Assembly: GCA_023898425.1 (NCBI GenBank)
Contig: CP060222.1
Span: 870,001-902,000, forward strand
Length of the DNA stretch: 32,000 bases
Source: Candidatus Saccharimonadota bacterium
GTDB taxonomy: Bacteria > Patescibacteriota > Patescibacteriia > 2-12-FULL-60-25
Direction of reading: 5' to 3'
Part shown: positions 5,819 through 31,258 of the stretch, in pieces
Position numbering within the stretch: the first letter of the stretch is position 1
Layout of the letters: each line of letters begins with the position of its first letter
Program-made: the position numbers and the translations under genes
Notes under the pieces: generated by a model
The model's input: only the letters and a program-made list of their open reading frames with translations
Told to the model about the DNA's origin: nothing
Database searches by the model: none

Positions 5819-7846
5819 CTACTTCGTCTTTCTCACAAATGTACCGTCCCAACCCTCTCCCGGAGGATTCGCTTCATATTCGCTACAGCGCTCGAAAAAG
5901 AGCTTAGCTGGCAAATCGGACGGATAAAGCTCTAAGTACTCGTTAAAGAGCCTCTTAGCCTCTGAGAATTGGCTTTGGTAGTACATTGTCAATGCATCTG
6001 AGTAACGAACAACGCGTTCTTTTTCAAGGTCGGTTGCTTGATCCATCTTTTCTACGATTTCATGAATTTTTACCGGTTCGGTTTTGCCCTTCACAGCAAC
6101 CTGGTCTAATTCGCGTTGGAGATATTCGCCCTGTAATTCATCTAAGGTATTCTTTGTGACGATGATTTCTGATCCATAATCTTTACATAAGCTTTCGGTA
6201 CGTGAAGCAAGATTTACGCTGTCTCCGATGACGGTATAATCATGACGTAGTGACGAGCCGATATTGCCAACCACCATCTCTCCGGTATTCATCCCAATAC
6301 CAACACGTAATTGAACGCCATTTGGAAAAAGTTTTTGTTCGTTCATTTCATGCAAACGCTTTTTCATCGCTAAAGCACATCGAACAGCTCGAAGCGCATG
6401 ATCGGTTTGATCCATTGGTGCATTCCAAAAAGCCATGACCGCGTCACCAATATATTTATCAAGTACTCCCCCTTCGGCAAAAACAATTTTCGTCATCTCA
6501 TCGAGATACATATTTAATACTTCGACGAGTTGCTCTGGACTGAGCCCTTCAGAAAGCGTGGTAAATCCGCGTAGATCAGAAAATAATACGGTCATGCGTC
6601 GACGCTCTCCCCCAAGACGGATTTTTGATGGGTCCTTCATTAACGATTCAACGACACTTGGCGATACATATCGTCCAAAAATTTGTTTGATTTCGGTTTT
6701 GTCTTGCTCGGATGCAACGAAACGATAGACAGATGCGCCCATATAAGCGGCGATCACAGCAACGACCGGCCAAAAGAGGCCAAGTAAAATTCCTTTATCG
6801 AATAATAAAAATCCCGCGGTAATATACCCGAAAATAATGACAATAAGTGCGATCACGCTATAACGAGGGCGTAATAAAAAGGCAGAAAAACCAATAAGAA
6901 GAATGCCCATCAATAAACTTAACGCATTTGCGATAAATGACGCATCTTTCAGCCAAAGTCTCGTAAGTAATGTATCTGCAATAGAAGCATGAATCTCTAC
7001 ACCGCTCATAGGAATACCTCCTGATGTTGGGACGAGTTGTTCATCATGCAAATCTCTCGCTGTTGCGCCGACAAAAACAATCTTGTCTTTTACAACACTT
7101 AAGTCTGCTGAGCCCTGAAGAATATCGGCAGCTGATAGTCTCGGTAATACACCGGGTTGTCCTGGGTAATTGATAATGAACCGTTTTGAACGATCTGTTG
7201 GGATCTCATTTAGCGCCGGTACAAGCCGTGCAATACGTAAGGCTTCTGCAGCAAAGCCATAGATTTGTGAGCCGTCTTTTTCATTTACGGATACGGGTAA
7301 ACGACGTGCGACATTATCAGAGTCCAAAGGGAGATTTGTAAAACCTGATGCTGATGCTACACCGAGTATACTTGAGATCGGTTTAACAGATTGCCCTTCT
7401 TGGACATACTGACCATCTTGAATAACAACGTTTGATAATTCTATAGGCAAAACAACATTGCCCGCTTGTTGAATCGCACGAGCAAGTTCTGCATCACTTT
7501 CTGGGGTTGAGTTCTCAGGAAAATTAATATCCAAAGCAATGACTCTTGCTCCTGCATTTGAAAGTCTACGAACAAGTTCGGCATGAACGGATCTATCCCA
7601 AGGCCAACGACCAATACGAGATAAGGAGGCGTCATCAATAGCAACAACGAGTAGACGACTATCTGGTTCTCGGTGAAGAAAAATAGCGTCTGTTAATCTT
7701 GAGGATGCTGTGTGGAAAAGTCCAAGCGCATCAACAGAAATCACACAGAGCGCACAGACAATAAGCATGCCGGCAAGCGACAATAAACGTTGTTTCATGC
7801 TCCTATGGTCAGGCGTAGAACGTTTTTTGTCAAAAGCGCACCTCAA
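5819..7846 (-). CDS. CHASE2 sensor-domain adenylate/guanylate cyclase (class III) with a TPR-like tail
   Basis: 675-aa ORF. N-terminal TM, then a CHASE2-like segment (VVAIDDASLSRIGRWPWDRSVHAELV), three TM helices, and a cyclase domain (VLFSDLRGFTTLSE, YIGDAVMAFWNAP, GDSVNLASRTES). The TTG start at 7846 overlaps the upstream gene. ATG at 7798 (MKQRLLSLAG) is an alternative start. Confidence 0.85.
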   Translation of the reverse strand: MRCAFDKKRSTPDHRSMKQRLLSLAGMLIVCALCVISVDALGLFHTASSRLTDAIFLHREPDSRLLVVAIDDASLSRIGRWPWDRSVHAELVRRLSNAGARVIALDINFPENSTPESDAELARAIQQAGNVVLPIELSNVVIQDGQYVQEGQSVKPISSILGVASASGFTNLPLDSDNVARRLPVSVNEKDGSQIYGFAAEALRIARLVPALNEIPTDRSKRFIINYPGQPGVLPRLSAADILQGSADLSVVKDKIVFVGATARDLHDEQLVPTSGGIPMSGVEIHASIADTLLTRLWLKDASFIANALSLLMGILLIGFSAFLLRPRYSVIALIVIIFGYITAGFLLFDKGILLGLFWPVVAVIAAYMGASVYRFVASEQDKTEIKQIFGRYVSPSVVESLMKDPSKIRLGGERRRMTVLFSDLRGFTTLSEGLSPEQLVEVLNMYLDEMTKIVFAEGGVLDKYIGDAVMAFWNAPMDQTDHALRAVRCALAMKKRLHEMNEQKLFPNGVQLRVGIGMNTGEMVVGNIGSSLRHDYTVIGDSVNLASRTESLCKDYGSEIIVTKNTLDELQGEYLQRELDQVAVKGKTEPVKIHEIVEKMDQATDLEKERVVRYSDALTMYYQSQFSEAKRLFNEYLELYPSDLPAKLFFERCSEYEANPPGEGWDGTFVRKTK

Positions 7847-9044
7847 CAGTAACCGAACCTGTATATGTCTGATTTTCTAGCTGACATTTTGCAGTGATAA
7901 CAGCCGAACCAGCATTTGCTAAAGCACTGAAGAATTGTTTGTCGATTTGGCCAAATCCTTCTGGCGCAGAACTAAAACGACATTGCGTTGTAATATCACT
8001 GCGTTCACCATCGTCACGAATAGCGTACGCTCGCAGTGAAATTGTTTGACCAAATGATAAGCCTGTAGAACTTGGAATAACGCTGATACGCGTAATGGTG
8101 GTTGTTGTTGATGTTGGCGCTGTTGGCGCAGTCGATGTCACCACGGTAGGTAGCGTAGACGTGGTGGATGACACGGTAAGAGTACCGTCTACAGTAGACG
8201 TGGTCATCGAAACGCCTACGATTGAGTTATCCTCTATATCACGGCTAGCCAAGGTTATAATCTCTTGCAAAGTTAGCGTTTGAGATCGTAGTTTTGACCA
8301 AATCTCACCAAAAACACTCGCTTGACTCTCCGTCCAACGTGGACGTAATTGATCCATATCATTTGCAACATTATTGAGCCCCTGAAGACTTACGGATGCC
8401 GCGAGTGCCGCTTCTTCGTAACGTTTTTGTTCTAGTGCTTGTCTTGATTCATTCATTCGTGAATGAAGTGATAATAAGCGCAGCGCTAAGCTTTCAGTCT
8501 CATCACGTGACAGAGTAAGGCGCCAATCTTCAAGTTGTTGTTTAATGCGATACGATCCATGACGGTCATCAATATCCGCAAAAATCCAATATCCAAGATA
8601 CAGTCCTTTGCGAAGTGTATCTTTATATCGAGCGTCTTTTTCTATGCGCTCCTTCCAGCGGTATTCTTCATCGAGAAATGCTTTTGAGGCTGTGCCAGAT
8701 TTATTATCATCCGCCAATTGACGCATCTCTAATAAGCGAGTGACGATGCGCTGCAACTCTACCGTCTCATTATTTTTATTTAGACGTTGATGCAACCATC
8801 GTGACGGTGCTCGTAACCATGCAATAAAAGATGCTTCACCTTTTGTCCAAGTTATTAACGCTGCTCGCACTTCGCTTGACTGCTGCGTTTGGTTTGTTGG
8901 GTCTATCCAAGCAGTGAGCGCATCCCCATGATCAATTTCTGTATAACTTTGCAACTCTTGAGGGAGCGGCTCAATGGTACCAATACGCCAAAAACCCCAT
9001 CCTAATAACAGGGCGACAATCATACCCACCAACCAACGCTTCAT
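7830..9044 (-). CDS. membrane-anchored hypothetical protein with a Thr/Ser-rich linker and a C-terminal Ig-like (Big_2-like) domain
   Basis: 404-aa ORF. N-terminal TM (MKRWLVGMIVALLLGWGFW), a helical middle region, a linker TTSTVDGTLTVSSTTSTLPTVVTSTAPTAPTSTTTTI, then a beta-rich tail resembling bacterial Ig-like domains. It directly precedes or overlaps the cyclase gene on the same strand. Confidence 0.6.
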   Translation of the reverse strand: MKRWLVGMIVALLLGWGFWRIGTIEPLPQELQSYTEIDHGDALTAWIDPTNQTQQSSEVRAALITWTKGEASFIAWLRAPSRWLHQRLNKNNETVELQRIVTRLLEMRQLADDNKSGTASKAFLDEEYRWKERIEKDARYKDTLRKGLYLGYWIFADIDDRHGSYRIKQQLEDWRLTLSRDETESLALRLLSLHSRMNESRQALEQKRYEEAALAASVSLQGLNNVANDMDQLRPRWTESQASVFGEIWSKLRSQTLTLQEIITLASRDIEDNSIVGVSMTTSTVDGTLTVSSTTSTLPTVVTSTAPTAPTSTTTTITRISVIPSSTGLSFGQTISLRAYAIRDDGERSDITTQCRFSSAPEGFGQIDKQFFSALANAGSAVITAKCQLENQTYTGSVTVEVRF

Positions 9045-10092: not shown

Positions 10093-10096
10093 ATGT

Positions 10097-10516
10097 GCGA
10101 GATAAGACGATAAGCCGAGTTCTGTCACCCGATACTCTTGCCAATAACGGGGGATGACTATCTCTCTGGGATGCTGGTTGCCCATCACCTCAAGCGAACG
10201 ACCATACTTTGGTCTTACGACCTCAGAATTTGTTCTTGCACCAGGAAGGGTTTGCCGCGAACCACTGTTACCAATGGCCGAGAAGGCTGGCAGCAATTCT
10301 TGCGAAAAACCACCCGACTTCACTTTTCACCTTTCATCCACTTACGTGGACTAGTATTGTCTCTGTGGCACTTTCCCTCGGTTTACTCCTCGATTGCTCT
10401 CGAAGCTATATCCGGGCGGTCATTAGCCGCTTCCGCCTTCACTCACCTTGCGATGAGATCGGTGCTCGGACTTTCCTCCCCAACGTAAACGTTAGGGCAG
10501 TCATCTGTCTTACCTA
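10097..10516 (-). ncRNA. rnpB: RNase P RNA (bacterial type A)
   Basis: The minus strand carries the universal motifs GAGGAAAGTCCGAGC (reverse complement of 10464-10478) and ACAGAACTCGGCTTAT (reverse complement of 10110-10125), plus AGTGCCACAGAGA. The termini can pair as P1 (AGGTAAGAC / GTCTTATCT). Only short overlapping ORFs occur here. Ends are +/-5 nt. Confidence 0.88.
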
Positions 10517-10524
10517 GCGGGCGA

Positions 10525-12783: not shown

Positions 12784-13649
12784 AGTAGCTAGATGGTAGA
12801 ACGTTATATCTATCGAGGGCAACTTAAAACCCCGAAGATAGCGGGGTTTAAGAAAGTGATGTCGCATTTTTAGGAGTGCGGGCGATATTTGCAAGGCTGC
12901 TTGGATGCAGCCAACGAGAAGCTTGTTGAAGCAACTGGATCGTAATGTGAGTTGTTACCAGCATCGCTGAATGACAATAATAACATCGTTATTTTCACTT
13001 GGTTGAAGTAAATACCAGTGCATGAACAGGGCGGATGTCAACATTGTGCAATGCGCCAAAGGTAACACAGCAAAGCGTTGCGAACACTGCGTTGTTTTGG
13101 TGTGTCTAAAAGGTGCATGGAGAACCTCCGTACAGCGCCATATGGTCTGCCTCGCCAAGAAAATTGTCAATAGATATGAAATCACCCCCAGCTTAGTTAA
13201 GCCGAGGGCGTCAGAATAAGCTCAATCCGGTGAAGGATACATTGAGAGCCAGTAGAATATGAACAAAGAGCTTGTTTGCCTCGCTCAATGCTATACAACA
13301 AAGCGATGGCCGTTATATGAAAAAGCGTGAGAGCGGTGGTGACGGTGACCCGAATACTATCACTATCTCAAGAGGGCTGATTTTTTTAGCGATTGAAATT
13401 CCACAAAGAATAGGTGAGCCTATCAGCGCGCAAAGCAGTGATAAGCAAACGACACCAATCAAACACCTTTCACTTCGTGTCGTAACGCACAGGTTAGAGA
13501 ACTTTTTCTTCATTGCTAACACCTCCCGGATAGTAGGACAGCTGCAGACAATGAGTAGGTAATAATACGTTATATCGTACGATCGTCAAGTTAACCGGCT
13601 AATTATAGATTCAGAGACAAAATACCAATAAACAGTTACACTACCACGT

Positions 13650-14579
13650 ATGTTCTCTGCAAAAATAAAGCGCTTACTTACCGAGAATCAGGTACTCGTT
13701 ATTCTTCTCGGAGTTATCTTGGGCATTACTCTCCCCTCGCAGCTAAACTTTATCAATGCGTACTCTACGCAATTACTGATATTAGTCTTCTTTTTTCTAG
13801 CTTAAGACTTTCGCTAGATGAGGTGGTGGGCTATACGCCAAAGATTGGCGCATGACGTTATTTGCAAGCATCTACATGCTCATTGTGATGCCGTTTGCGT
13901 TGTTTTTTTCAGCCTCTTTTTTACCCACAGAATGGTCAGTGGCACTGCTTATTTTAGGCGCGATGCCTACGGGTACCACTATTGCGCTCATGGCAGAGAA
14001 TTTTTTGGAGGTAAAACATCGCCTCGCTCTTGTTATTACAACCATTCACCTCATTACTTGCGCCGCTCACTATTCCGTTTGTAAGCAAGGTAGCTATTGG
14101 TACTACGGTAGAAATTGATACGGCACGCATGTTTATCTCTCTCTTTCTTACTATTGTTGCCCCGTTTGCCCTTGGGGTTCTTGTTCAAAAGCGGTGCCAA
14201 AACAAATAAAAAGCGTGATGCCCTTTGGCGTAATATCTCGGTCATTGCTTTTGGCTTTCTTATCACGGGTATTGTCGCGGATTCTGCTGGCGAAGGTATT
14301 ACGTTTACTCTCACCGATGGTGGTATCATGCTTTTTGCGATGGCGCTTCTTGGAGCGCTCACGTGGGGTGGATATTATATCGCTACCTGGCGACAGCCGT
14401 CAGAGCGCGTTACGATCGCACTTTGTATGCTTTATATGAACAATACGCTCGCGCTCTTTGTTGGCGATAAGTTCTTTCGTGAGCTAGGTATTGTTCCAAA
14501 ACAGGTGCTCTTACTCTTGGTGGTTAATGCATTGCTACCCGCCGTTAAAATAGCCGCTCAACATGTCACAAAAACCTAA
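13650..14579 (+). pseudogene. bile acid:Na+ symporter (BASS/SBF)-like permease with about six frameshifts
   Basis: Joining pieces from all three frames gives a continuous permease-like sequence: ..FFSSLRLSLDEVVGYTPK..MTLFASIYMLIVMPFALFF..LLILGAMPTGTTIALMAENFFGGKTSLALVITTI..LLAPLTIPFVSKVAIGTTVEIDTARMFISLFLTIVAPFALGVLVQK..ITGIVADSAG..CMLYMNNTLALFVGDKFF... Shifts fall at or near the T6 runs 13791-13796 and 14001-14006 and the A4 run near 14185. Confidence 0.6.
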
Positions 14580-14622
14580 AAACCCTTTCTTTCGTTCGCT
14601 CATCGATAACCCTACCACTCCT

Positions 14623-15615
<993 letters not shown>

Positions 15616-15624
15616 CCCTTAAAA

Positions 15625-15656
15625 CACTCTCTTCTTTGACGAAGAGGGTGTTTTTT
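15625..15656 (+). terminator. intact rho-independent terminator after the broken dehydrogenase gene
   Basis: aaaaCACTCTCTTCtttgacGAAGAGGGTGtttttt: 10-bp stem and a T6 run. Confidence 0.8.
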
Positions 15657-15701
15657 GCTTAGATCTTCGTTATTTGCTCTTTTCACACCCTAAGAGGACT
15701 C

Positions 15702-16714
15702 ATGAGAAATGAACGGAATGCAAACGAACCTATTCAGTTGCTAAAAGATCGGCGGCGGATTGGCGGGCTCACTCAACAAGAAACCGTAGAAGCCATCATA
15801 GAATATCAATCCTCGCGATGACGCCAGTCGCAAACGAGATCTCGAAGAGCTTGTTATCTCGACGCATTTACCTGGGGCATTACTGAGAATCATAAAGCCG
15901 CATCATCAGTATGCAGCACGAAGAACTCCTTTCCTCGTCTATTTTGCGATGAAAAAAGCAATGAACCGTTTTAATCCAAAAAAGAATACGACATTTCTTA
16001 CATACCTGCGTTTGTGGATGAGAAATGAGTTACAGAGAAATCGTACGGATGAAGAGTTTCGTCTCTACAGACAACCATTCGAAAGAAATGCTCTCTATCT
16101 AGCATGCAAATCCATCGATGCGCAGCTACACAATCATTGGGGACATACCCTCCATCACTGATATCCATCAGGAGGGTGTTCGTAGAAAAAACCCATTATT
16201 TGTAAATAAGCATGGCATCATCTCAATAAAAGGTCTTGCCGACCTCATCGCTGAGATGGAAATACCGATCATGTCCCTTCAGACAGAGCGGCACAATGAG
16301 TATGAATATCTGTCATCACATACGTCTCTAAGCCCTTCTTCAAGAGCGCTCATCCATGAGCTACATGCAAATGCAAAAGGCCTTTTGAAGACTATCTGTC
16401 ATTTCTTGTCAGCCAACTTGGTTTTATGGAAGCCGATCTCTGCCTCGAATATCTTTTTATTGGAAAAAACCTACAAAGACGCAGGCTCAATACACCAGCT
16501 CTCAAGAGAGCGTGTACGTAAGATTATCTCGGTGCAAATACCCGAATGTTTTTCTGAACTGGGCTGGCATTCACCAAGCATTCTTTCTGAGCTCGCTGCA
16601 ATCACTTTGCTCACGTATGAGTTTTGTGGAGATACACCCAGTCCAATCTTGGAACGGCTATCGAACCTAAACCACGAGCTCACCGAAGTAAGCCTTTTCG
16701 ACGTTTACCGATAA
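15702..16714 (+). pseudogene. sigma-70 family-like protein, multiply frameshifted
   Basis: ATG 15702 follows AAGAGG. Region 2-like FAMKKAMNRFNPKKNTTFLTYLRLWMRNELQR and region 4-like AGSIHQLSRERVRKII occur in different frames. An EELLSSSIL piece sits in a third frame. I count at least 3 frame changes. Domain assignment is moderate confidence only. Confidence 0.5.
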
Positions 16715-16919
16715 CGTAGACTATCTATCCGTCTTTCATCGATTGAGAGAAACCATAGCCAAAATAGACGGTATGAGCCTATCATCTTTAAGCGTAGCAA
16801 AAGCACTCCCTATCGCTCTGCCAAAGAGCGATACGAGATAGCGTGTCGCTCTCAAGATCTACCGTCACAACTGAAGACGACACAAGATCTGCTTCAAGCG
16901 CTTCGCGTGACGCAGCTTC

Positions 16920-17189
16920 ATGACGAACCCCCAAGATCAACGACTTTTTCCATTTGGAAGAGAGACGTTATATCTTCTGTATTCTGATACGCATTCTCGA
17001 ACGTCTATTGATGACCTTCTGAGCAAAGCGCATAGACAAGGCGACATCATCCTTTATCGTAACGCCATTCAAGGCGAGGCGATCAAGTTTTGGCCCTCTC
17101 CGGCATCTCCTGTTCTTGCGACCACAGAACACAAGCCTTCGGCAGATTCGGCCCTTTTCCTTTCCGGTAAGGTTAACGCCTCCTTCTAG
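16920..17189 (+). CDS. hypothetical protein (89-aa ORF)
   Basis: ORF track only. Upstream (16773-16920) there are further short open pieces in other frames, so this may also be a fragment. Confidence 0.3.
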   Translation: MTNPQDQRLFPFGRETLYLLYSDTHSRTSIDDLLSKAHRQGDIILYRNAIQGEAIKFWPSPASPVLATTEHKPSADSALFLSGKVNASF

Positions 17190-17240
17190 GGTATTTCATC
17201 ACCATCAGCGTCAACAACGTCTGATCGCCTAAAACTATTG

Positions 17241-17268
17241 CCCCATCTGCTTGATGGGGCTTTTCGTT
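17241..17268 (+). terminator. terminator-like hairpin
   Basis: CCCCATCtgcttGATGGGGcttttcgtt. It lies inside the 5' extension of ORF 17251, which argues that the real start of the next gene is ATG 17305. Confidence 0.5.
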
Positions 17269-17304
17269 GCCAGAATGCGCCAAGCGTACTACGCTATCTA
17301 TAGT

Positions 17305-17928
17305 ATGAAACGTTATTCATTTACAAAGCTCTTGCTTTCGCTTTCTGCGGTTGCCTTATTTGGTATTGGCTGCAATACAACAGCGCCCATTAAGACCCCT
17401 CCAGAAACAACAGCGGCGACACAAACAACATCCTCAACAGCAACAACAGCGACTCCTTCACCTACAGAAAATACTGTTGTGATCGATGACACTTGGGATT
17501 CTTATTCGAGTAAGTCAGGTTTTACTTTTCAATATCCAACAAAAGGACGCCTTACTCCAGAATGGTCCATTGATAATTTTGCCACCAACGATGCAAAGGT
17601 CTTGGATGGTTGTTATTTAGATGGATCTAGTGAACGAGATGGCTCTCGCACAAAGATAAAGATCGATAATACCGAGTTCTGTGTAACAAGAACGGCTGAC
17701 CCAGGCGCAGGACAAGTTTACTATGCGGATAATTATGCTTTCGAGAACGGTCGAAGTATCACCGTCATCACTTTTGTAAAACATTTTGCCAATGGATCAA
17801 ATTTTGAACGAGAAGCTTGCCACGGAAAAACAGTTGTTCCAGTTGGCGCAAATGATTGCGCCTTATTTGAAGAAGGTGACTATATCAATCTATTAGACTC
17901 TGTTATAAAAACATTTAGTAAAGAATAG
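17305..17928 (+). CDS. secreted protein or possible lipoprotein with a Thr-rich linker
   Basis: MKRYSFTKLLLSLSAVALFGIGC is a signal peptide ending in Cys (atypical lipobox). The linker is TTAATQTTSSTATTATPSPT. The globular C-terminal domain is of unknown family. Confidence 0.7.
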   Translation: MKRYSFTKLLLSLSAVALFGIGCNTTAPIKTPPETTAATQTTSSTATTATPSPTENTVVIDDTWDSYSSKSGFTFQYPTKGRLTPEWSIDNFATNDAKVLDGCYLDGSSERDGSRTKIKIDNTEFCVTRTADPGAGQVYYADNYAFENGRSITVITFVKHFANGSNFEREACHGKTVVPVGANDCALFEEGDYINLLDSVIKTFSKE

Positions 17929-17957
17929 TTCGTTCGTAAAAAAATCGATTGAATATC

Positions 17958-17986
17958 AAACGCGCTCGATAGCTTCGAGCGCGTTT
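17958..17986. terminator. bidirectional terminator between convergent genes
   Basis: AAACGCGCTCGAtagctTCGAGCGCGTTT, a 12-bp stem. Confidence 0.8.
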
Positions 17987-17991
17987 ATCGT

Positions 17992-18595
17992 TCAGATTAT
18001 TTTTTGTTCATAGGTGAGATGAACGGTAATGGTTGAGATGGGTACATTATGAACCCTGTCTTCAGCATGGGGCGGATCAGCACGAAAGTCCGTAACAATA
18101 CCGCCCGCCATATCAACGACCTTATGACCATAGATATTAAACGCATTTAGAAGCCAATGCTCTAATACATCAGGAATCCCACTAAAGGAGACTACGTGAT
18201 ATCCCGTGAGGACTTCTTTGTCACAGGATGACCGAAGTTAAACATCTGCACCATCAGCTTCGGCACAGCTTTTAATGCCGTTTCTGGTGAAGCGAGTTTA
18301 AGAAGGGCGCGATAGGCACCCGTCAGATCACGATTCGCCTGCCATTCGGTACGATGTTTGAGATACGTCTTAACCGGTTTTTTTGAAACACTGGCTTCAA
18401 TAGGTAGGAGCATAGGCACCCACATCACGTCATACATGGCGCTATCCAAGAATCGCTGCGACATAAAGGCGTGAAGATCTGTGTCTACCGCTGAACCGCT
18501 TCTAGGAGTCTTGGATATCCTCCATCTACTTCGCTATCAAAATAGCTTCTTGTGCCTGTATACAGGGTGCCTTTGGCAAGAAAGTTCGAGGTCAT
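17992..18595 (-). pseudogene. ~195-aa hypothetical protein (possibly DUF2378/TIGR02265-like) with two frameshifts
   Basis: Strong start (AAAGGAG, 5 nt, ATG at 18595). MTSNFLAKGTLYTGTRSYFDSEVDGGYPRLLEAV | VDTDLHAFMSQRFLDSAMYDV..FNFGHPVT | EVLTGYHVVSFSGIPDVLEHWLLNAFNIYGHKVVDMAGG..VHLTYEQKII lie in three frames. The family guess is weak. Confidence 0.5.
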
Positions 18596-18653
18596 ACCAA
18601 CTCCTTTCTAAGGTACTTTTTAGACGTTAGCGTCCATCAGCCTGATTGTCCAT

Positions 18654-18690
18654 ATAAAAAAAATACCCTGGCAAAAGCCAGGGTATTTTT
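18654..18690. terminator. bidirectional terminator
   Basis: aaaaaaaaaTACCCTGGCaaaaGCCAGGGTAttttt. Confidence 0.8.
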
Positions 18691-18705
18691 ATCTAATGTT
18701 CTATC

Positions 18706-19390
18706 TTAGAGATTTTGATCAATACTCTCTAAAAGTTTTTCTGCCTTGTGTTTACCACCGAGACCAAAGGCAATACCTCCTGCGAGGGAGAACATCACCA
18801 CAATGCCGGACAATACGATTTGGATCAAGCTCGTAGCGATACCGAGCTGCACTAAAGCCGCCATCAAGGTAAAGATGACAATCGACCACTTAGCGAGACC
18901 AGAGAGAAAACCTGCAAAGCCTGAAGCGACTTTAGATGCTTCGACGCCTTTTTTTACAAGGTCTTGTACAAACTTACCTACAATCAAGCCTACACGGCTG
19001 GGATGATAATAGCCACAATGACATTAGGGATATAGAGCGCGATTTGCTGCAAGAAGTTGGTTACTTGCGTAAGCTCAAGCACATCTACAACGGCAATAAA
19101 GACAACGATGTTCAAGAACCATTTTACTACCCAAGAAACAAGACCAGAGAACGAAAACCCTAAACCATAAGATTCTAACTCTTTTTAACGCCGATCTTTT
19201 CTAAAGCATTATCAATCTTTGTGTATCTCAATACCGCTCGCACGGCTCTTGCCACAAGAGAAGCAATAAAAAGACCAATAAGTAATGCGAGTAGTGCGCC
19301 AATAATTTTTGGTGTATAGGAGATAAATTGGCTCATCATCCCTTGCCCGGATGCGGTAAGCGCTTCACTCCATGAGGTAAAATAGTTCAT
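18706..19390 (-). pseudogene. conserved TM-helix repeat (PF05552-type, CmpX-like) small membrane protein with two frameshifts
   Basis: MNYFTSWSEALTASGQGMMSQFISYTPKIIGALLALLIGLFIASLVARAVRAVLRYTKIDNALEKIGV | ..LGFSFSGLVSWVVKWFLNIVVFIAVVDVLELTQVTNFLQQIALYIPNVIVAIII | LIVGKFVQDLVKKGVEASKV..GIAFGLGGKHKAEKLLESIDQNL lie in three frames. The first shift is at an A5 run near 19180. Confidence 0.6.
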
Positions 19391-19450
19391 AGGTATGTGG
19401 TAAATTATTGTATTTAAATGAATTACTTACCTAACCTTAGCACAAAAAAC

Positions 19451-19481: not shown

Positions 19482-19558
19482 TGGTGGACCGTGTCGGATT
19501 CGAACCGACGACCCCCTGCTTGCAAAGCAGGTGCTCTAGCCAACTGAGCTAACAGCCC
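19482..19558 (-). tRNA. tRNA-Ala (anticodon UGC), CCA encoded
   Basis: Minus strand GGGCTGTTAGCTCAGTTGGCTAGAGCACCTGCTTTGCAAGCAGGGGGTCGTCGGTTCGAATCCGACACGGTCCACCA. It folds as a cloverleaf, the anticodon loop is TTTGCAA, the G3:U70 alanine identity pair is present, and the T-loop is GGTTCGAATCC. Confidence 0.95.
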
Positions 19559-23475: not shown

Positions 23476-25980
23476 TTATTCTTCGTCTGTCGTGACTTCT
23501 CCGTGCTCGACAAATGTTACCGAGCTTACGAGATCACCATCTTCTTTAAAGCGCATGAGACGGACACCTTGTGTGTCACGGCTAAGCTCAGGCACGGACT
23601 TGAACGGCGTTCGAACGACGATACCTTTTTTGGAGATCATCACGAGATCACGTTCATCCTCTTTGCTTGAGATATAAGCGTTTACAACACCACCCGTTTT
23701 TGCACTGACTTTTGCTGTACGAATACCAGATCCGCCACGGCCTTGTGCGCGATATTCGCTCACATCGGTGCGTTTACCCATACCGTTTTGTGTAATAACG
23801 AAGAGCGCGAGCTCACCTTTGTCTGCAAGCTTTGGATTAATGACATCCATTGCCACAACATAGTCTTTGCCTTTGAGAGTGATACCACGAACACCGGCGG
23901 CTGTGCGACCCATTGAGCGAACACCGTCTTCGTTAAAGCGAATACTTTGACCTTCGCGAGTAACGAGCGAGATATCATCCTTACCGCTTGATGGCTTTAC
24001 CCAGACAAGCTCGTCTGATTCATGAAGTGTAATCGCGATAAGACCGGATCGTCTTACATTGGAGAATTCTTCGATACCAGATTTTTTAATTGTTCCTTGA
24101 CGCGTGACCATCACAAGATGTTTTGAACCATCGATATCATCCATTGGCAAGGTGACGGTGACCTTTTCGCCTGGAGCAAGTTGCAAGAAGTTTACAATTG
24201 CTTGTCCTTTAGATGTACGTGTTGCTTGTGGTAACTCGTAGGCTTTAAGACGGAAGACGCGACCACGACTCGTAAAGAACATGATTTCGGTATGCGTATT
24301 TGTTGTAAACATGGTACGCACAGCATCTTCTTCTTTTGTGGCAACACCAACGATACCCTTACCGCCACGATGTTGAGCTTTAAATGTATCCGGAGGTAAT
24401 CGCTTGATGTACCCATCGTCGGTAAGCATGATCAGACACTGTTCTTGTGGCACAAGATCCTCCATAGAAAACTCTCCAACAGGACCAGGGATGATGAGCG
24501 TACGACGTGCGTCACCAAACTTGTCGCGCAAGCCTTCGACTTCGGCTTTAATGATATTTAACATCTTTTTTACGGATGCAAGAATCGATTCAAGTTCATC
24601 AATAATTTTCTTTTTCTCTTCCCATTCTTGTTCAACTTTTAAACGCTCAAGGTTTGCGAGTTGTTGCAAACGCATATCGAGAATCGCTTGTGACTGGATT
24701 TCTGAAAGCTTAAACTTGGACATCAAATTTGATTTTGCCTCATCCTTGTCTTTGGATTTTTTAATCGTTGCGATGATTTCATCGATATGCAAAAGCGCAA
24801 TACGCAAACCTTCTAAGATATGAATACGTTCTTTTGCGCGGTCAAGATCGTATTGCGTACGACGACGCACCACTTCTTTGCGATGAGAGATGTATTCTTC
24901 AAGAATGTGTTTAAGCGTCAAAATACGTGGCTGAATACCATCAATCAAACAAAGTGAGTTTACGTGAAACGCCTCTTGGAGCTGTGTAAACTTAAAGAGC
25001 TGATTGAGAACTTTCTTTGGATAGGAATCTTTTTTGAGATCAATCACCATGCGAATACCCTCTTTGTTGGATTCGTCACGAAGATCACGAATGCCTTCGA
25101 TACGCTTTTCTGTCACAAGCTCAGCCATCTTTTCGAGAAGATTTGCTTTGTTTACTTGGTAAGGCAATTCACTCACGATAATTTGAAAATTACCTGCTTT
25201 TTCTTCTATAATTTCTGTTTTTGCACGCATGACGATACCGCCACGGCCTGTTGCATAGGCCTGCATGATGGCGTTTTTGTCATAAATAATACCACCGGTA
25301 GGAAAATCAGGACCAGGGATAATAGCAACAAGCTCTTCGATGGTGAGGTCGCCGTTTTCGATAAGCGCGATAATACCGTTACAAACCTCCGTAAGGTTAT
25401 GTGGCGGAATATTCGTTGCCATACCTACAGCAATACCGAGTGTACCGTTTAAAACAAGATTAGGAAGTTTGCCCGGTAATACACGCGGCTCATCATGTGA
25501 ACCGTCGTAGTTTGGACGAAAATCAACGGTATTTTTATCGATATCAAAAAGCATTTCTTCGGCAATCGGTGAGAGCTTGGCTTCTGTATAACGATAGGCA
25601 GCAGCAGAGTCACCATCTACCGAACCAAAGTTACCTTGACCACGCACAAGTGGATAGCGCAAAGAAAACTCTTGCACCATACGCACCATTGCTTCGTAAA
25701 CCGATGAATCACCATGAGGGTGATACTTACCAAGCACGTCACCAACAACCGTTGCTGACTTACGAAACTTTGCGCTTGAACGCAAACCAGAGTTCCACAT
25801 TGAGTAGAGAATGCGTCGATGAACCGGTTTTAAGCCATCACGGACATCTGGCAAAGCACGGTCAACAATAACGGACATGGCATAGTCCAAAAAGGCCGTC
25901 TTTACTTCGTCCACAAGTGGAGCGGATGTGACACCGTGTGGCAACTCTGCTGGTTGCTCGTTGTTGATTTCTTCTTCCAT
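23476..25980 (-). CDS. gyrA: DNA gyrase subunit A
   Basis: 834-aa [20 protein letters not shown], the active-site region [11 protein letters not shown], and C-terminal beta-pinwheel repeats. Confidence 0.97.
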
Positions 25981-25987
25981 AGTTTTT

Positions 25988-26395
25988 TTACTGTTGAGTA
26001 GTGGTTGGTGACTCGTTGTTCTTTAGCTCTTTTGCTTGCTGTTGAAACAACTGAACGTCGGACTTAACGGATTCGGCAGTGTACCTAATGGTTTCTATCG
26101 CCGTATCTGGATTTGATGGTTGTGTTAACCATATCCCTCTGCCAAACGAGAGCAGCCAACCCGTCGTTACCATGAGTGTTGAGGCGGCGATCGCGATCAC
26201 ATAACCTAGGTGTGGTCCACGATCTTGATTGGCTCGAGCCGAGGCATGTGCACGAATGAGCTCGTGCTTTTCTTCGGGTGTAAGTATTTTTGGCTCAAGC
26301 GCATCAAAAACATTGCCACGCGCTTTTGGTTTTGAAGCGCGACGCTTTACGACAGATTTTTTTGGCGTCTTCTGTAATGTGCGTGGCATAGTCAT
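25988..26395 (-). CDS. hypothetical single-pass membrane protein
   Basis: 135-aa ORF with a basic N-terminus and one TM ([20 protein letters not shown]). It ends 8 nt before the gyrA start, so it is probably co-transcribed. Confidence 0.55.
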
Positions 26396-27717: not shown

Positions 27718-28065
27718 GTGATCGTGCAAAGCGCCCTGACAGAAGAAGATTCTGCCACAGTAGAAAAACTGACCTGGATCTATAATCAAACCTATCCGCG
27801 TCTCCGCAAGGTGCGCGAAATCGTCACACTAGATATGGATGCACAAATTAGCATCCCGCTTTCTGTAGATACAGATGGCTACGGCACAGCCTATATGATC
27901 TATGGACTTCTGAAGTATCTCAAGTGCCCTGATATCCTTTTTTGCCTTACCATCGCAAACGCAAAGCACAGAAGAATTCCACTAGATGCAGAGTGGTTCA
28001 TTAGATCGATAGAAGAAGATCATCCAAATGAACTAACTCGCTATTATGAAAAATACGCTTCCTGA
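27718..28065 (+). CDS. hypothetical protein (115 aa)
   Basis: ORF track. The GTG at 27724 has GAGGTG just upstream and is an alternative start. No motif recognised. A terminator follows. Confidence 0.5.
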   Translation: MIVQSALTEEDSATVEKLTWIYNQTYPRLRKVREIVTLDMDAQISIPLSVDTDGYGTAYMIYGLLKYLKCPDILFCLTIANAKHRRIPLDAEWFIRSIEEDHPNELTRYYEKYAS

Positions 28066-28097
28066 CCCGCTCAACATAATGAGCGGGTTTATTTTTT
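28065..28097 (+). terminator. rho-independent terminator
   Basis: ACCCGCTCAacataaTGAGCGGGTttatttttt. Confidence 0.8.
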
Positions 28098-29283
28098 AAC
28101 CAAGTAGTTGCTTGATATTAAACTGTGTATCCAAAATCTCTTTGGCTGTAGCATCTTTCGTTTCTTGAACCGGATTATTGTTCGCGTTTTCCCATGCTGC
28201 AGGCAATGCAATGGATAGGATACGTGCCGCCTCTGCCTTTAGGGGCGAATTTGCGTTCATCATAAGTCTCTTTAACTCTATCAACAATTGACTACGACTC
28301 ATGCCTTTCACATTCTCAGTCATGTGGTCACCGTGATGACCCAAGATAATCGTCTTTGTAAGTATGCGTGCATGTATCTCTAGCTCCCAACTTTGTTGTT
28401 GTGCTGCTAATGCGCCTATTCGTTTTAATAATGCATCACCTTCTTTTGCTGTTGTCTCTTCGCTGACGAATTTATCCATGATCTTTTCATCAATAAAAAT
28501 TGTCGTATTAATCAAAGGTACCTTGCCCTCTTTGGGATTATCAAGATATTCTCCAGGTTTTTTAGAGCCAACGTCATACCAATACGCCTTAGCAAAATCT
28601 CCTTCAGCCGTTCTCCTTAGACCACGTTTAAGCTTACTAAGATACTCGTCACGATTTGTTGTTGCATCAACACCAACTAAAGCACCTTCGCGGTCATTAT
28701 CCTCTACTGTGTAGATTAATAAACCGTCTGCGCCATTTACGGTATCGTCGATATCGCAGGAGCCGTAGGGAAATACGCTACCGTCCGCCACATCATAACG
28801 TCCATTGAGCGCACCATCTGCTGAAAACACTTCTAATATAGCAAATTCAAGTTGCCTTGGCCCTTCCTTTTTTTTGAGACTAAATCCAACCTTTTTATTT
28901 GTATGGTATTTTCTTTCTTCTTGATCAATAGTGATGCGACCTCCTGTATCATCTTGTTTCCAAGGAATCGTTCTATTCGCTATCCACCAGCGCATTATAT
29001 CCATCTGCTTTTCACGAGAAGGAATTTGCTCATCTTTTTCTGGGCCTCTCTTTGCTGGTTTTTCAGCAGCTTGTGGATCTTTTGGTTTACCTGCTCTTTT
29101 GACCACGCTTCCTTGAGTGGCAGCTGATTCTCCTCCTTTTCTTGTTCTTTTGATGACGCTACCGCCTGATCCTTTTGGTTCATCATCGATTTTTCGATCC
29201 ATTAACATGCCTCGCTCTAATGGGTTTTTCATAATTAAACATATAATACCATACTCCCTTTGTACTTGCCGTTTCGCTGCCAT
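28096..29283 (-). CDS. hypothetical protein (368-395 aa) with a basic repeat-containing N-terminus
   Basis: Long uninterrupted ORF. Likely starts are ATG 29232 or ATG 29202 (GAGG 7 nt upstream). N-terminal duplicated motif GSVIKRTRKGGE / GSVVKRAGKPKD. No TM and no catalytic motif I recognise. Confidence 0.6.
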   Translation of the reverse strand: MAAKRQVQREYGIICLIMKNPLERGMLMDRKIDDEPKGSGGSVIKRTRKGGESAATQGSVVKRAGKPKDPQAAEKPAKRGPEKDEQIPSREKQMDIMRWWIANRTIPWKQDDTGGRITIDQEERKYHTNKKVGFSLKKKEGPRQLEFAILEVFSADGALNGRYDVADGSVFPYGSCDIDDTVNGADGLLIYTVEDNDREGALVGVDATTNRDEYLSKLKRGLRRTAEGDFAKAYWYDVGSKKPGEYLDNPKEGKVPLINTTIFIDEKIMDKFVSEETTAKEGDALLKRIGALAAQQQSWELEIHARILTKTIILGHHGDHMTENVKGMSRSQLLIELKRLMMNANSPLKAEAARILSIALPAAWENANNNPVQETKDATAKEILDTQFNIKQLLG

Positions 29284-29319
29284 GAAATCCTTGTGTAAAT
29301 ATTTATGTAAACACGATAC

Positions 29320-29348
29320 TTGACATATATACCGTATTATGCTAACTA
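29320..29348 (+). promoter_or_regulatory. putative promoter reading into the GC-rich insert
   Basis: TTGACA (29320-29325), 17-nt spacer ending in TGc, TAACTA (29343-29348). It lies in AT-rich sequence just outside the GC shift. Confidence 0.45.
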
Positions 29349-29349
29349 T

Positions 29350-30340
29350 AGCTGGCGAGATTCACCAACCACCCGAATCTCAAGGAGTTCCATGGAAAAG
29401 ATTACCGTGTCCGAGGTCCCGAGTCTGAAGAGCGTCCTTACGGCTTTTGGCCGTAACGGCGAGGCGCGTAAGCGCTATCAGAAGGAGCGGCAGCGGTTTA
29501 TCCGCGAGCTCCGTCAGAACGGTCTCTTTCTCCCGAATGCGATGGCAGACAATGCCCCGCTCGAAGAGATCCAGCGCTGGGCATCCGCTCAGCTGGACCA
29601 GCCCGCCGTCGTGGCTCGCCTGCAGAGGTGGCACGACAACGAGGCGCTCTGGAAGGAGATCCTCCTCGTTCTGAAGAGGGTTCACACCCTCGAAGACGAG
29701 GCCGGCCACAAGCGGACGCGAGTCCACGGCGGTCGAGAGTCGGAGCGCAAACAGCTCGAAAAAGCGAAGGCGTTCTTGCTCAACCGTGAGCGCACCCTCA
29801 AGGGGGCTTACGGGTTTCGCACCAAGCTCGGCGCCCTGCTGAATAAGCAGGAGACCGTATTGGCGGCGGAGTAGGCGTATGGGTTGTGGGTCCCCAAAAT
29901 GACCCACGCATCGTTCAAACCAAACAAAAAAACCAAAACAAGAGGATAAAGTGAAACAGCAAACAGAAACGAATCTCCGTTCTTTGGCAATGTTCTTGGT
30001 GAAGTTGGAGCGCAACGATGCGATCTCTAGCTTGGCCGTGATGCTCACCCTGAGCGCCGTAAGCCTAGCGGCTTATGCGCTAACGGGCGACCACTCCTTC
30101 AAGGGTGTGTCGCTGGTACTGGGTGGCCTCGGTTGCTACCTCTTCTGGTACAAAAACCTGAAGCTGGACTACCGAGACGAGTGCGAGAGCAAGGCATCGC
30201 CTCGCTACAGCCGGTATCTACCGGTTCTCGCGGTTGGTGTCGTGGCGGCTTACTTTGGGGTAACCCTTTTGAGCCACCTTGGCACCGATCATCTCTTCAC
30301 CACCTTCACGAAGCTGGCGCATCTTGTGCCGGCTTCTTTT
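29350..30340. other. compositionally foreign (~60% GC) insert
   Basis: Hand-counted G+C per 60 nt: 35, 42 and 37 inside, versus 19 in the neighbouring gene. The boundaries are abrupt. Confidence 0.7.
29392..29874 (+). CDS. hypothetical basic, helical protein (160 aa) encoded in the GC-rich insert
   Basis: AGGAG 4 nt before ATG 29392. Arg/Lys/Glu-rich sequence (..RKRYQKERQRFIRELRQNG.., ..RESERKQLEKAKAFLLNRERTLKG..). G/C-ending codon usage is consistent with this frame. No family recognised. Confidence 0.6.
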   Translation: MEKITVSEVPSLKSVLTAFGRNGEARKRYQKERQRFIRELRQNGLFLPNAMADNAPLEEIQRWASAQLDQPAVVARLQRWHDNEALWKEILLVLKRVHTLEDEAGHKRTRVHGGRESERKQLEKAKAFLLNRERTLKGAYGFRTKLGALLNKQETVLAAE

Positions 30341-30373
30341 ATATCTAAAAAATTTGATTCCCTATTCTCTTGA
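29951..30373 (+). CDS. hypothetical small membrane protein (140 aa, ~3 TM) encoded in the GC-rich insert
   Basis: GTG 29951 after AGAGGA. TM segments ISSLAVMLTLSAVSLAAYAL, VSLVLGGLGCYLFWY and YLPVLAVGVVAAYFGVTLL. The 3' end overlaps convergent ruvC by 12 nt. Confidence 0.5.
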   Translation: MKQQTETNLRSLAMFLVKLERNDAISSLAVMLTLSAVSLAAYALTGDHSFKGVSLVLGGLGCYLFWYKNLKLDYRDECESKASPRYSRYLPVLAVGVVAAYFGVTLLSHLGTDHLFTTFTKLAHLVPASFISKKFDSLFS

Positions 30374-30838
30374 TTTCATTGTTGAACCAGCGATCGCGAT
30401 AGCAAGTGCATCCGCTGCATCATCTGGTTTTGGAATATCGTCCAATTTTAATATACGTTTTACCATTTCTTGTATCTGATCTTTTTTTGCTCCACCATAC
30501 CCTGCGGCAGCTTGTTTGATTTGATTTGGTGTTAACTCGATCATTGGAATACCCGCATCTGCAATCGCAAGCAAAATCACTCCTCTCCCCATTCCAACAT
30601 TGATTGCTGTTTTCGCATTGCTCGAAAAAAACAATTTTTCTACAACAACAAGATCAGGTTTTGCTTTTTCGATAATACGCTTTACTCCGTCACGCGTTTC
30701 TTGAAGACGTTGAGTAAAATCATCTTTTGATGAGGTTTGAATACAGCCATGACCAATCCAGCGAAACTCATTTTTTATCACATCAATAACGCCCCAACCC
30801 GTTCGGTCAAATCCTGGATCTATTCCGAGAATGCGCAT
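30362..30838 (-). CDS. ruvC: crossover junction endodeoxyribonuclease RuvC
   Basis: MRILGIDPGFDRTGWGVI.. (catalytic Asp), ..VVVEKLFF.., ..PNQIKQAAAGYGGAKKDQI.., ..DDAADALAIAI... The start is the internal ATG 30838. Confidence 0.9.
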   Translation of the reverse strand: MRILGIDPGFDRTGWGVIDVIKNEFRWIGHGCIQTSSKDDFTQRLQETRDGVKRIIEKAKPDLVVVEKLFFSSNAKTAINVGMGRGVILLAIADAGIPMIELTPNQIKQAAAGYGGAKKDQIQEMVKRILKLDDIPKPDDAADALAIAIAGSTMKSRE

Positions 30839-31225
30839 ACTACTGTTAAGGCTAGTGGATGAATGATTTATGGTCAACGAAGCGCTGCTCTTGGCAAGGA
30901 TTTTTTGATAGACTAAAGTCTTGTCACATCTTTGGAGAAAGGAGGTTTTATCGGAACTTACCAGCACTCTGGACATGACCAATGTCGAAAGAAATGGTTT
31001 CTACGCCCAGTGGCGCATTGCGTCGGTGGTGCCTAGCGATATTTCAAAAGCGTCAGAGCGCGTTCCGAAGAGCAGGATGTAGATACTTCCAGCACATAAT
31101 CGAAGTCTTACGGTAACACGTGAGACACGTTGAAAAAAATAAGGGGACTCCCCCTCTGGTCACGTGGATACTCTCCCGTGACCACTTTTATTTCATAGAG
31201 GGTTATTCTCAGCAAGTAACAAAAA

Positions 31226-31250
31226 ACACCCCCAAAGGGGTGTTTTTTAT
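31226..31250. terminator. terminator after rpoC (bidirectional design)
   Basis: aaaaaaCACCCCcaaaGGGGTGtttttt. Confidence 0.8.
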
Positions 31251-31258
31251 TAAGAAGA

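Follow-up and report, generated by a model that had tools for sequence, protein, structure and literature searches.

A GC-rich two-gene module beside ruvC in a Candidatus Saccharimonadota genome: clade-restricted proteins, divergent alleles and a composition shared with a sister species

Compositionally atypical islets in bacterial genomes are reportedly, in the model of Lawrence and Ochman, products of horizontal transfer that subsequently ameliorate. Other small loci, including bacteriocin and colicin immunity genes, pherotype loci and surface-antigen cassettes, are polymorphic and are swapped through conserved flanks. Here, we compare with these systems a block rich in guanine plus cytosine (GC) at positions 29350-30340 of a 32,000-nucleotide (nt) stretch of DNA, hereafter called the window, from a Candidatus Saccharimonadota bacterium (contig CP060222.1, positions 870,001-902,000 of the forward strand). 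The block carries two open reading frames (ORFs), ORF1 (29392-29874, + strand) and ORF2 (29951-30373, + strand), and lies between the genes p395 and ruvC. Like the Lawrence-Ochman islets, this module is a short block of foreign-looking GC content and codon usage with sharp edges, and its genes lack relatives in the host-clade core. Unlike them, it has no mobility genes or att-like repeats, is positionally conserved in two species, shows no amelioration, and has edges that are not insertion scars. Like the swapped polymorphic loci, it has alleles that are 44-53% divergent in protein sequence in genomes that are 97-99% identical, breakpoints at conserved boundaries, a small polytopic membrane product, and a variable gene content, with ORF1 present or absent; unlike them, it shows no sequence or structural kinship to any of these loci and has no recognizable cognate toxin, peptide or receptor gene. 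The explanation that we favor, and regard as probable, is that the module is an old, clade-restricted bicistronic operon that behaves as an exchangeable cassette and keeps its composition through selection acting on the transcript.

The GC content of the block is 57.6%, compared with a mean of 44.4% (standard deviation 2.2, maximum 51.8) for the other 991-bp intervals of the window, which corresponds to a z-score of ~5.9. At the left edge, the GC fraction rises from 0.27-0.30 to 0.47-0.63 across 29340-29415 (~60 nt), and at the right edge it falls from 0.60 to 0.23 across 30315-30345 (~30 nt). The GC fraction at third codon positions (GC3) is 0.789 for ORF1 and 0.652 for ORF2, with a value of 0.71 for the conserved core of ORF2, while the neighboring genes lie between 0.27 and 0.42 and the highest value among the other genes checked in the window is 0.52. 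The original prediction, which was made from the sequence alone, had described an abrupt jump in composition and a preference for G/C-ending codons in both ORFs, and our calculations bear this out; its four hand counts of 35, 42, 37 and 19 G+C per 60 nt were all recomputed exactly. The atypical base composition and codon usage by which genomic islands are recognized are therefore both present in the module. The GC-rich block spans the leader of ORF1 through the terminator of ORF2, and we infer that it corresponds to one transcription unit. Next in GC content among the features of the window is a DEAD/DEAH-box helicase gene (4015-5748, - strand), which is far milder (GC 0.50, GC3 0.52).

The same two genes, with the same composition, occupy the same site in a sister species, represented by locus L013, whose genome is ~50% GC. 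The gene order there is arfB, p112, p349 (- strand), ORF1, ORF2, ruvC (- strand) and rpoC. The GyrA proteins of the two species are 94% identical, housekeeping proteins in general are 77-94% identical, and lineage-specific proteins are 43-65% identical. We measured synonymous divergence (dS) by the method of Nei and Gojobori (NG86) and obtained values from 1.3 to saturation for the flanking genes and 0.87-0.89 for the module; after correction for composition, fourfold degenerate sites give distances of 0.79 (0.60-1.06) in the module and 1.18 in its flanks. Since the synonymous divergence of the module is near, and somewhat below, that of its flanks, the module appears to date from around the time of the species split or from moderately later. 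The claim that the block was recently acquired is thus not borne out, given that the gene pair recurs at this site, with its composition unchanged, in a species in which the flanking genes are synonymously saturated. Occurrence of the same segment, with its composition, at this locus in distant relatives had been named as an observation that would speak against the claim; we found it in one relative, the sister species, only. The ratio of nonsynonymous to synonymous divergence (dN/dS) is 0.30-0.37 in four comparisons and the reading frames are preserved, and both ORFs are protein-coding genes under purifying selection.

The composition of the module has remained fixed while that of its surroundings has moved. 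GC3 in the sister species is 0.789 for ORF1 and 0.648 for ORF2, and the shifts between species are 0.00 and -0.06 for the module, whereas GC3 of 8/8 flanking genes is shifted by +0.06 to +0.19. Likewise, sites at which a weak (A or T) base in one species faces a strong (G or C) base in the other are strongly asymmetric in the flanks (593 weak/strong versus 294 strong/weak, p 5e-24) and not in the module (39 versus 46), and the contrast between the two is significant (Fisher p 1.9e-4). Hosts of 44% GC and of 50% GC thus carry the module with an equally GC-rich codon usage, and amelioration toward the host, as expected of a genomic island, is not observed. Neutral mutation pressure should have produced the shift between hosts in a module of any origin; this shift is missing, and the composition of the module does not follow that of its host.

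The module is present in all strains of the window's species that were found as well as in the sister species. Eleven loci match the window region at 96.2-100% identity, all of them with both junctions, and these junctions occur in at least nine independent assemblies; they are also found on a 1.03-Mb contig. The exact ORF1 and ORF2 proteins are recorded as hypothetical proteins of Candidatus Magasanikbacteria, a lineage of the Candidate Phyla Radiation (CPR). A search for intermediate relatives by way of ruvC revealed that the next sequences after the sister species are at most 54% identical and show no synteny; the nearest ruvC sequences outside the clade are from Saccharibacteria metagenome-assembled genomes (52-54% identical).

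ORF2 exists as deeply divergent alleles. A profile built from nine ORF2 sequences identified a further homolog, P0033, whose contigs (L166-L172) belong to the sister species: their flanking proteins are 96-100% identical to those of L013, flank dS is 0.05-0.14, the L166 genome is ~97.5% identical to that of L013, and the spacings to p349 and ruvC are the same as in L013. These contigs lack ORF1 and the intercistronic hairpin described below (553 nt), and ORF2 is fused to an ORF1-type leader at a shared ATGGAA. The ORF2 protein that they encode, allele C, is 56% identical to that of L013 (dS 1.22, dN/dS 0.30) and 47% identical to that of the window, it is still GC-rich (GC3 0.69), and identity to L013 returns at the terminator. 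In all, at least three deep alleles can be distinguished (A, with sub-alleles A1 and A2 that are ~7% apart; B; and C), with dS of 0.87-1.23 and dN/dS of 0.30-0.35 between them. The depth of allele C equals or exceeds that of the split of A, found in the window, from B, found in L013; allele C is functional and segregates with B in one species. In strain L002 of the window's own species, ORF2 diverges by 7.1% and has an N-terminus like that of the sister species, against a background divergence of at most 0.6%.

Since a deep ORF2 allele without ORF1 sits in genomes of the sister species and its breakpoints fall at conserved ends, the stretch from start codon to terminator appears to be exchanged like a cassette by recombination, or else to be held as an old polymorphism. 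ORF1 is the sole part of the module that shows presence/absence variation, being absent from allele C, and ORF2 presumably works without it. Given that ORF2 is under purifying selection in the absence of ORF1 (dN/dS 0.30), ORF1 would not be an indispensable antidote and ORF2 would not be merely the antidote of ORF1. The existence of deep, swapped ORF2 alleles suggests diversifying or frequency-dependent selection.

Two ends of the module and one internal element are conserved at the nucleotide level. A 5' leader (29350-29391, + strand) begins with the block and contains a conserved, CA-rich 11-mer, CACCAACCACC (29363-29373), and a ribosome binding site (RBS), AAGGAG (29382-29387). Both are invariant in the window, L013 and L166, while the adjoining intergenic DNA carries indels. 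The leader is not predicted to fold into anything more stable than chance (z 0.01). Upstream of it lies a weak candidate promoter (29320-29348, + strand) consisting of TTGACA, a 17-nt spacer and TAACTA with an upstream TG. The TTGACA that had been pointed out at 29320 is indeed there, but a consensus scan gives no sigma-70-like site at 29320-29348 and the best candidate for a -10 element is poor; no more than TTGA can be aligned with the sister lineage. With up to one mismatch, CACCAACCACC occurs five times in the window, compared with 0.23 expected (29363-29373; 26000-26010, - strand; 9027-9037; 8097-8107, - strand; and 25740-25750), and copies lie 19-29 nt 5' of the ORF1 ATG and 20 nt 5' of the gyrA ATG. 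We considered CACCAACCACC as a general leader motif and rejected it, as the other copies are unconserved or not upstream of genes, and only the ORF1 copy is kept in the sister species.

The internal element, GGGTTGTGGGTCCCCAAAATGACCCACGCATCGT (29881-29914, + strand), is located between the two ORFs and is predicted to form a stem of 7-8 bp in each lineage; in the window, 29886-29892 would pair with 29901-29907 around the 8-nt loop CCCAAAAU. The two lineages share 33/34 nt of this element, in comparison with 69% identity for the coding DNA and spacer DNA that is otherwise unalignable. It is a single-copy element in the window, is not found in viral contigs, and is missing along with ORF1 in allele C. 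Since no U-tract follows it, the hairpin is not a terminator. Between the hairpin and the GTG start codon of ORF2 lies an A-rich, allele-specific spacer (29915-29950, + strand) with the RBS GAGGA at 29942-29946, in line with the earlier description; L002 and P0014-16 have another, shorter spacer and an ATG start (MEKFLRSLA...), resembling the sister lineage.

At the other end of the module, a hairpin like that of an intrinsic (Rho-independent) terminator (30310-30336, + strand) followed by a U-tract (30337-30346) lies inside the 3' end of ORF2. In the window it is predicted to form a 12-bp stem (free energy, dG, of -20.5 kcal/mol, z -6.6), followed by UUUUAUAU, and in L013 a 9-bp stem followed by UUUUUU (dG -13.7, z -3.3). 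The stem is kept in all alleles while the length of the loop varies, and a single stem pair shows a compensatory change, G-C to A-U, between the window allele and L002, P0003 and P0014, which at the protein level corresponds to KLAHLVP versus KLTHLVS.

The terminator also accounts for the unusual C-terminus of ORF2 in the window. Its loop is 4 nt longer than that of the sister species (as aligned, CATCTTGT in the window versus ACTC in L013). The sister ORF2 ends with ...TKLATRRLF and has its stop codon within the U-tract. In the window, the difference in loop length shifts the frame past this ancestral stop, and as a result the ORF2 frame is 16 codons longer and continues across AT-rich host DNA until it enters the end of ruvC (core 29951-30321, species-specific tail 30322-30373). 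The convergent ruvC gene (30362-30838, - strand; Pfam RuvC, 5.8e-46; GC3 0.27) has its stop codon at 30362-30364, and the coordinates confirm that the ORF2 stop (30371-30373) lies within a 12-nt overlap with the 3' end of ruvC, as had been noted; in L013 and L166 the two stop codons are 13 nt apart and free of overlap. The idea that a right-hand junction replaced the original C-terminus of ORF2 does not hold, since the 4-nt indel in the loop of a conserved terminator accounts for the tail. The stop codon of the window ORF2 lies ~25-30 nt past the point at which its own terminator should end transcription (30337-30373), so that terminated ORF2 transcripts would be stop-less and would need ribosome rescue; only read-through RNA, antisense to ruvC, would be able to encode the tail. 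The arfB gene is found 2 kb upstream of this tail, which is probably a coincidence.

We also assessed the folding propensity of the module as RNA. The 996-nt unit has a predicted folding energy of -438 kcal/mol, compared with -371 +/- 7.7 for dinucleotide shuffles (z -8.7). Under a stricter null, synonymous shuffles in which the encoded protein, codon families and all dinucleotides are preserved, the z-scores are -3.0 (window) and -2.3 (L013) for ORF1, and -4.2 (window), -4.0 (L013), -3.0 (L166) and -4.6 (L002) for ORF2, whereas all but one of the 12 control segments range from +1.9 to -1.5. The z-scores of the consensus minimum free energy are -4.8, -2.8 and -4.9 for the module and -0.03 to -1.8 for controls. 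RNAalifold reports 25 compensatory pairs, for a structure that is derived from the same alignment, which makes this count circular. Pairs predicted from one ORF2 allele were also scored in the other alleles, and this non-circular test of pair preservation was negative, which leaves a specific conserved RNA fold in ORF2 unsupported. We conclude that a high predicted folding propensity is conserved in every allele, and that, among specific folds, the two discrete hairpins alone are supported. In a separate part of the window, p135 (25988-26395, - strand), a small lineage-specific gene upstream of gyrA, gives z-scores of -2.4 and -2.8 against synonymous shuffles and is the single control with such an excess of folding.

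ORF1 encodes a basic (isoelectric point, pI, 10.2), hydrophilic, predicted all-helical orphan protein of 160 amino acids (aa), in keeping with its first description as an Arg/Lys/Glu-rich, helical-looking protein with an RBS before ATG 29392. It is ~57-58% identical in aa and 67% in nt to the sister-lineage copy, with zero indels, a dN/dS of 0.37 and most of the variation at third positions; the conserved motifs are FGRN-EARK-Y-KERQRFIREL, RWHDN and GFRTKLG-LLNKQE. The AlphaFold2 (AF2) model contains helices only, with a predicted local distance difference test (pLDDT) score of 55, and Foldseek searches with this low-confidence model returned nothing better than E-values above 4. There was no match for ORF1 in Pfam, NCBIfam, PHROG, PADLOC or PDB; a hit to Arc_MA, with an E-value of 1e-3 that is below the cut-off, was treated as noise. 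An ORF1 profile searched with HMMER against the full set of 1.84 billion representatives recovered its own clade only, apart from P0005, which is a fragment with a frameshift, and P0006, a TPR protein that we judged spurious. A 222-aa ORF on the opposite strand (29380-30048, - strand) is open in both lineages, for which the probability by chance is ~0.03-0.08 per lineage, and has no Pfam match. It was rejected as a gene on the basis of its codon-aligned frame, in which dN/dS is 1.34 and identity between the lineages 43%, compared with a dN/dS of 0.37 and an identity of 57% for the sense frame, which bears out the earlier view that it is the shadow of a GC3-rich sense frame.

ORF2 encodes a 140-aa membrane protein with two strong hydrophobic segments (23-46 and 89-111) and a weaker one (52-67). 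The AF2 model (pLDDT 66) has three long helices, and these observations together agree with the suggestion of a small protein with ~3 transmembrane (TM) helices starting at GTG 29951. It is 66% identical to the sister-lineage protein (dN/dS 0.31), length differences in its core are in-frame only, and the motifs TGD, SPRY and HL--TFTKLA are conserved. Profile searches of Pfam, NCBIfam, PHROGs, PADLOC and PDB gave no family match, and Foldseek searches of PDB with the low-confidence model returned only generic helical bundles. The variants P0005, P0011 and P0021 from other assemblies comprise a frameshifted ORF1 of 96 aa, an N-terminally extended ORF1 of 178 aa, and an ORF2 of 185 aa that reads through the terminator; they are either assembly errors or occasional pseudogenized copies.

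For neither ORF was there a relative outside the clade among 5.8 billion clustered proteins, or a viral relative in three scans of viral contigs including IMG/VR. PADLOC gave zero matches at E <=0.1 for ORF1, ORF2, p395 and p115, and PHROGs gave noise-level matches only (E >=0.05). Three protein searches and two locus scans identified no GC-richer carrier: every copy is at this locus, in hosts of 44-50% GC. The proposal that neither protein can be assigned to a family is borne out by family, structure and deep protein searches, and by these searches ORF1 and ORF2 appear to be two new orphan protein families that are restricted to the clade.

We propose that the composition of the module is not the fading mark of a recent import and would instead be held by selection on the transcript, for example for a compact, stable and poorly translated mRNA. 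ORF2 would be the core membrane effector, able to act alone, and ORF1 an accessory factor, possibly a regulator that binds RNA and governs ORF2 synthesis through the intercistronic hairpin. Together with the hypervariable neighboring genes described below, the deep, swapped alleles would point to a membrane function under diversifying or frequency-dependent selection, for instance in immunity, exclusion or cell-cell interaction. A number of considerations weigh against this proposal. The promoter, the transcription start site, termination and the interaction between ORF1 and the hairpin are all inferred from sequence, and both AF2 models are of low confidence. The control gene p135 also reaches a folding z-score of -2.8, pairs predicted for one ORF2 allele survive substitutions in the others no better than random complementary pairs do (for instance, 0.38 vs 0.38), and the excess of folding, instead of being selected, could follow from local patterning of G3/C3 as a by-product. 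The synonymous distance of the module is ~30% below that of its flanks, which allows a somewhat later common origin, and the stasis of GC3 could come from repeated re-import of the cassette, allele C being proof of exchange. Finally, no empty site was found among 146 ruvC loci from species-representative genomes and metagenomes, and with neither an empty site nor a more distant relative, ancestral presence is undatable beyond these lineages.

An alternative that we regard as possible, though unlikely, is that the module belongs to a circulating pool of cassettes. Homologous recombination would replace them again and again from an unsampled reservoir, either related lineages or an element of higher GC, so that their composition would be that of the pool, with no selection in situ, and would never equilibrate with the host. 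The occurrence of allele C in a genome ~97.5% identical to L013, with breakpoints at the start codon and the terminator, is consistent with such a pool, as are the mosaic ORF2 allele of L002 and a synonymous distance somewhat under that of the flanks. However, all copies are at one locus in hosts of 44-50% GC, with no higher-GC carrier in the data, and the dS of 0.9-1.2 between alleles indicates that each allele has been long resident somewhere. The excess of folding of all alleles over synonymous shuffles is also left unexplained.

A more elaborate version of the operon proposal, to which we give low weight, is that the module represents a hitherto unreported type of CPR accessory cassette, an RNA-gated polymorphic immunity or interaction locus of episymbiotic bacteria, in which a GC-rich, hyper-folded mRNA is selected, so that composition is fixed whatever the host genome, and ancient alleles are swapped via the conserved ends. 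Equally tentative are the further elements of this reading, that a basic partner protein and its hairpin are optional and that some alleles are as old as, or older than, the species.

It is doubtful that the module is a toxin-antitoxin (TA), immunity, abortive-infection or exclusion module, in which ORF2 would be a membrane toxin or immunity protein, ORF1 its partner, and the folded mRNA a throttle on expression like that of addiction modules. The pairing of a small soluble protein with a small membrane protein, the deep swapped alleles, the hypervariable neighbors and the highly folded mRNA are all compatible with it, and the size and three-TM layout of ORF2 resemble those of immunity proteins against pore-forming colicins. 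That likeness is one of size and TM count, with no colicin-type immunity relationship of ORF2 in Pfam, PDB or Foldseek searches, and there is nothing for a module of this kind in PADLOC, PHROGs, Pfam or NCBIfam, no recognizable toxin gene nearby and no prophage context. Furthermore, the 76-nt spacer is unlike the tight coupling of type II TA genes, and allele C, in which ORF2 is kept under purifying selection without ORF1, rules out strict mutual dependence.

Type II TA operons resemble the module in having two small co-oriented genes, one terminator and one basic helical product; they differ in that the module has no TA homology in Pfam, NCBIfam or PADLOC, a 76-nt gap with a conserved hairpin, a membrane protein as its second product, and a second gene that survives alone. 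As in the type I toxin mRNAs of the hok/sok type, a strongly folded mRNA for a membrane protein is preceded by an upstream reading frame. However, a hok-like toxin is a peptide of under ~60 aa with a cis-antisense RNA, whereas ORF2 has 124-140 aa and ~3 TM helices, no antisense RNA gene was identified, there is no Rfam match at E <=1, and the pair-preservation test does not support conserved long-range pairing. Class I holins are like ORF2 in size and in having three hydrophobic helices. Unlike them, ORF2 has no endolysin or prophage genes around it, no PHROG match better than E 0.05 and no viral-contig relative, and its C-terminus is not highly charged; its neighbors arfB, ruvC and rpoC do not provide a phage or holin context.

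The original prediction had interpreted the block as a recent horizontal insertion, in which ~1 kb of cargo from a GC-rich donor came to lie between p395 and ruvC, cutting the membrane ORF short at the right junction, and this we now consider highly improbable. The strongly atypical GC and GC3, the sharp edges, the lack of homologs among host-like genes and the AT-rich tail of ORF2 all speak for it. Against it stand the same site and composition in a species with saturated flanks, and the lack of any donor, whether in the protein sets of 5.8 billion and 1.84 billion entries or among viral contigs. In addition, the module has no integrase, tRNA or repeats, its edges are the conserved leader and terminator, and its tail arises from a 4-nt indel. 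A Pfam scan of the neighboring genes showed no integrase or transposase families, the sole tRNA is 10 kb away, and the repeats in the window are short and chance-like only, the best boundary pair matching at 15/20 nt; these scans confirm the stated lack of an integrase, a tRNA target and clear direct repeats. That best pair, a boundary direct repeat TTCACCA.. at 29361 and 30296 (15/20 nt), was taken as chance because it is absent as a conserved feature in the sister lineage L013. With a host-like ORF2 tail and block edges that coincide with leader and terminator, no insertion junction is needed, and the interpretation of the module as a recent cargo whose C-terminus was replaced at a junction is wrong.

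That the module is a structured non-coding or dual-function RNA, with its ORFs incidental or secondary, is scarcely credible. The GC-rich block in an AT-richer genome, the whole-unit z-score of -8.7, the consensus folding z-scores and the near-invariant hairpin would fit such an RNA. The coding signature is clear, however, the antisense frame is unconstrained, the pair-preservation test was negative, and Rfam yielded nothing at the gathering score across the window for the module and nothing at E <=1 in 29200-30500. An assembly chimera or contaminant, for which the abrupt change in composition is the only argument, has practically no probability: the check for misassembly that had been called for found both junctions, at 96.2-100% identity, in assemblies of different samples from NCBI, ENA and Logan, and this recurrence of identical junctions in different samples, the 1.03-Mb contig and the synteny in a second species exclude it.

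The divergently transcribed neighbor p395/p378 (28096-29232, - strand) is lineage-specific, has a host-like composition (GC3 0.33) and is 51% identical in aa to its sister-lineage counterpart; ruvC is ~85-86% identical to that of the sister lineage. Within the window's species, the region 27718-29283 is hypervariable, with nucleotide divergence of up to 13.8% for p115 and 4.4-8.1% for p395, while arfB, ruvC, rpoC and ORF1 differ by 0-0.6% in most strain comparisons (arfB by 2.4% in one). Neither p115 nor p395 has a family or PDB match, and both are host-like in composition. On the other side of the module, the sister lineage has an ORF6N (KilA-N-like) gene between ruvC and rpoC (L013 11215-11748), which is shortened to 102 aa in L166 (4725-5033). 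This gene is absent in the window (30839-31258), where ~200 nt of spacer can still be aligned, and the site is a second variable spot beside the module.

Elsewhere in the window, 12900-19400 contains ORF-poor stretches with fragments of broken genes. At 14639-14926 and 15175-15447 lie the separated catalytic and NAD domains of a 2-hydroxyacid dehydrogenase; 15949-16161 holds a fragment of sigma-70 region 2, and 19175-19390 (- strand) one of an MscS TM helix. Such fragments are either pseudogenes or frameshift errors of long-read assembly. A class A RNase P RNA is encoded at 10095-10516 (- strand, 178.7 bits) and is overlapped by spurious ORFs at 10138-10488 and 10209-10517. The lone tRNA in the window is a tRNA-Ala(UGC) at 19482-19558 (- strand). 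An adenylate/guanylate cyclase with a CHASE2 domain (5819-7846, - strand) is a sensory signaling protein in a CPR genome of ~1 Mb.

Atypical GC content is routinely read as a sign of recent horizontal gene transfer, and in the module described here an atypical composition has been kept through ~1 substitution per synonymous site. If selection on the transcript is the cause, the module would be a natural example of an mRNA-level constraint that overrides mutational bias, and a warning for the inference of horizontal gene transfer from composition. The presence of deep membrane-protein alleles in near-identical CPR genomes points to frequency-dependent selection, which could mean an interaction with phage, with a host cell or with kin in organisms that have so far resisted cultivation. 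Together with p395 and p115, the locus may offer a compact target for learning what CPR bacteria fight over.

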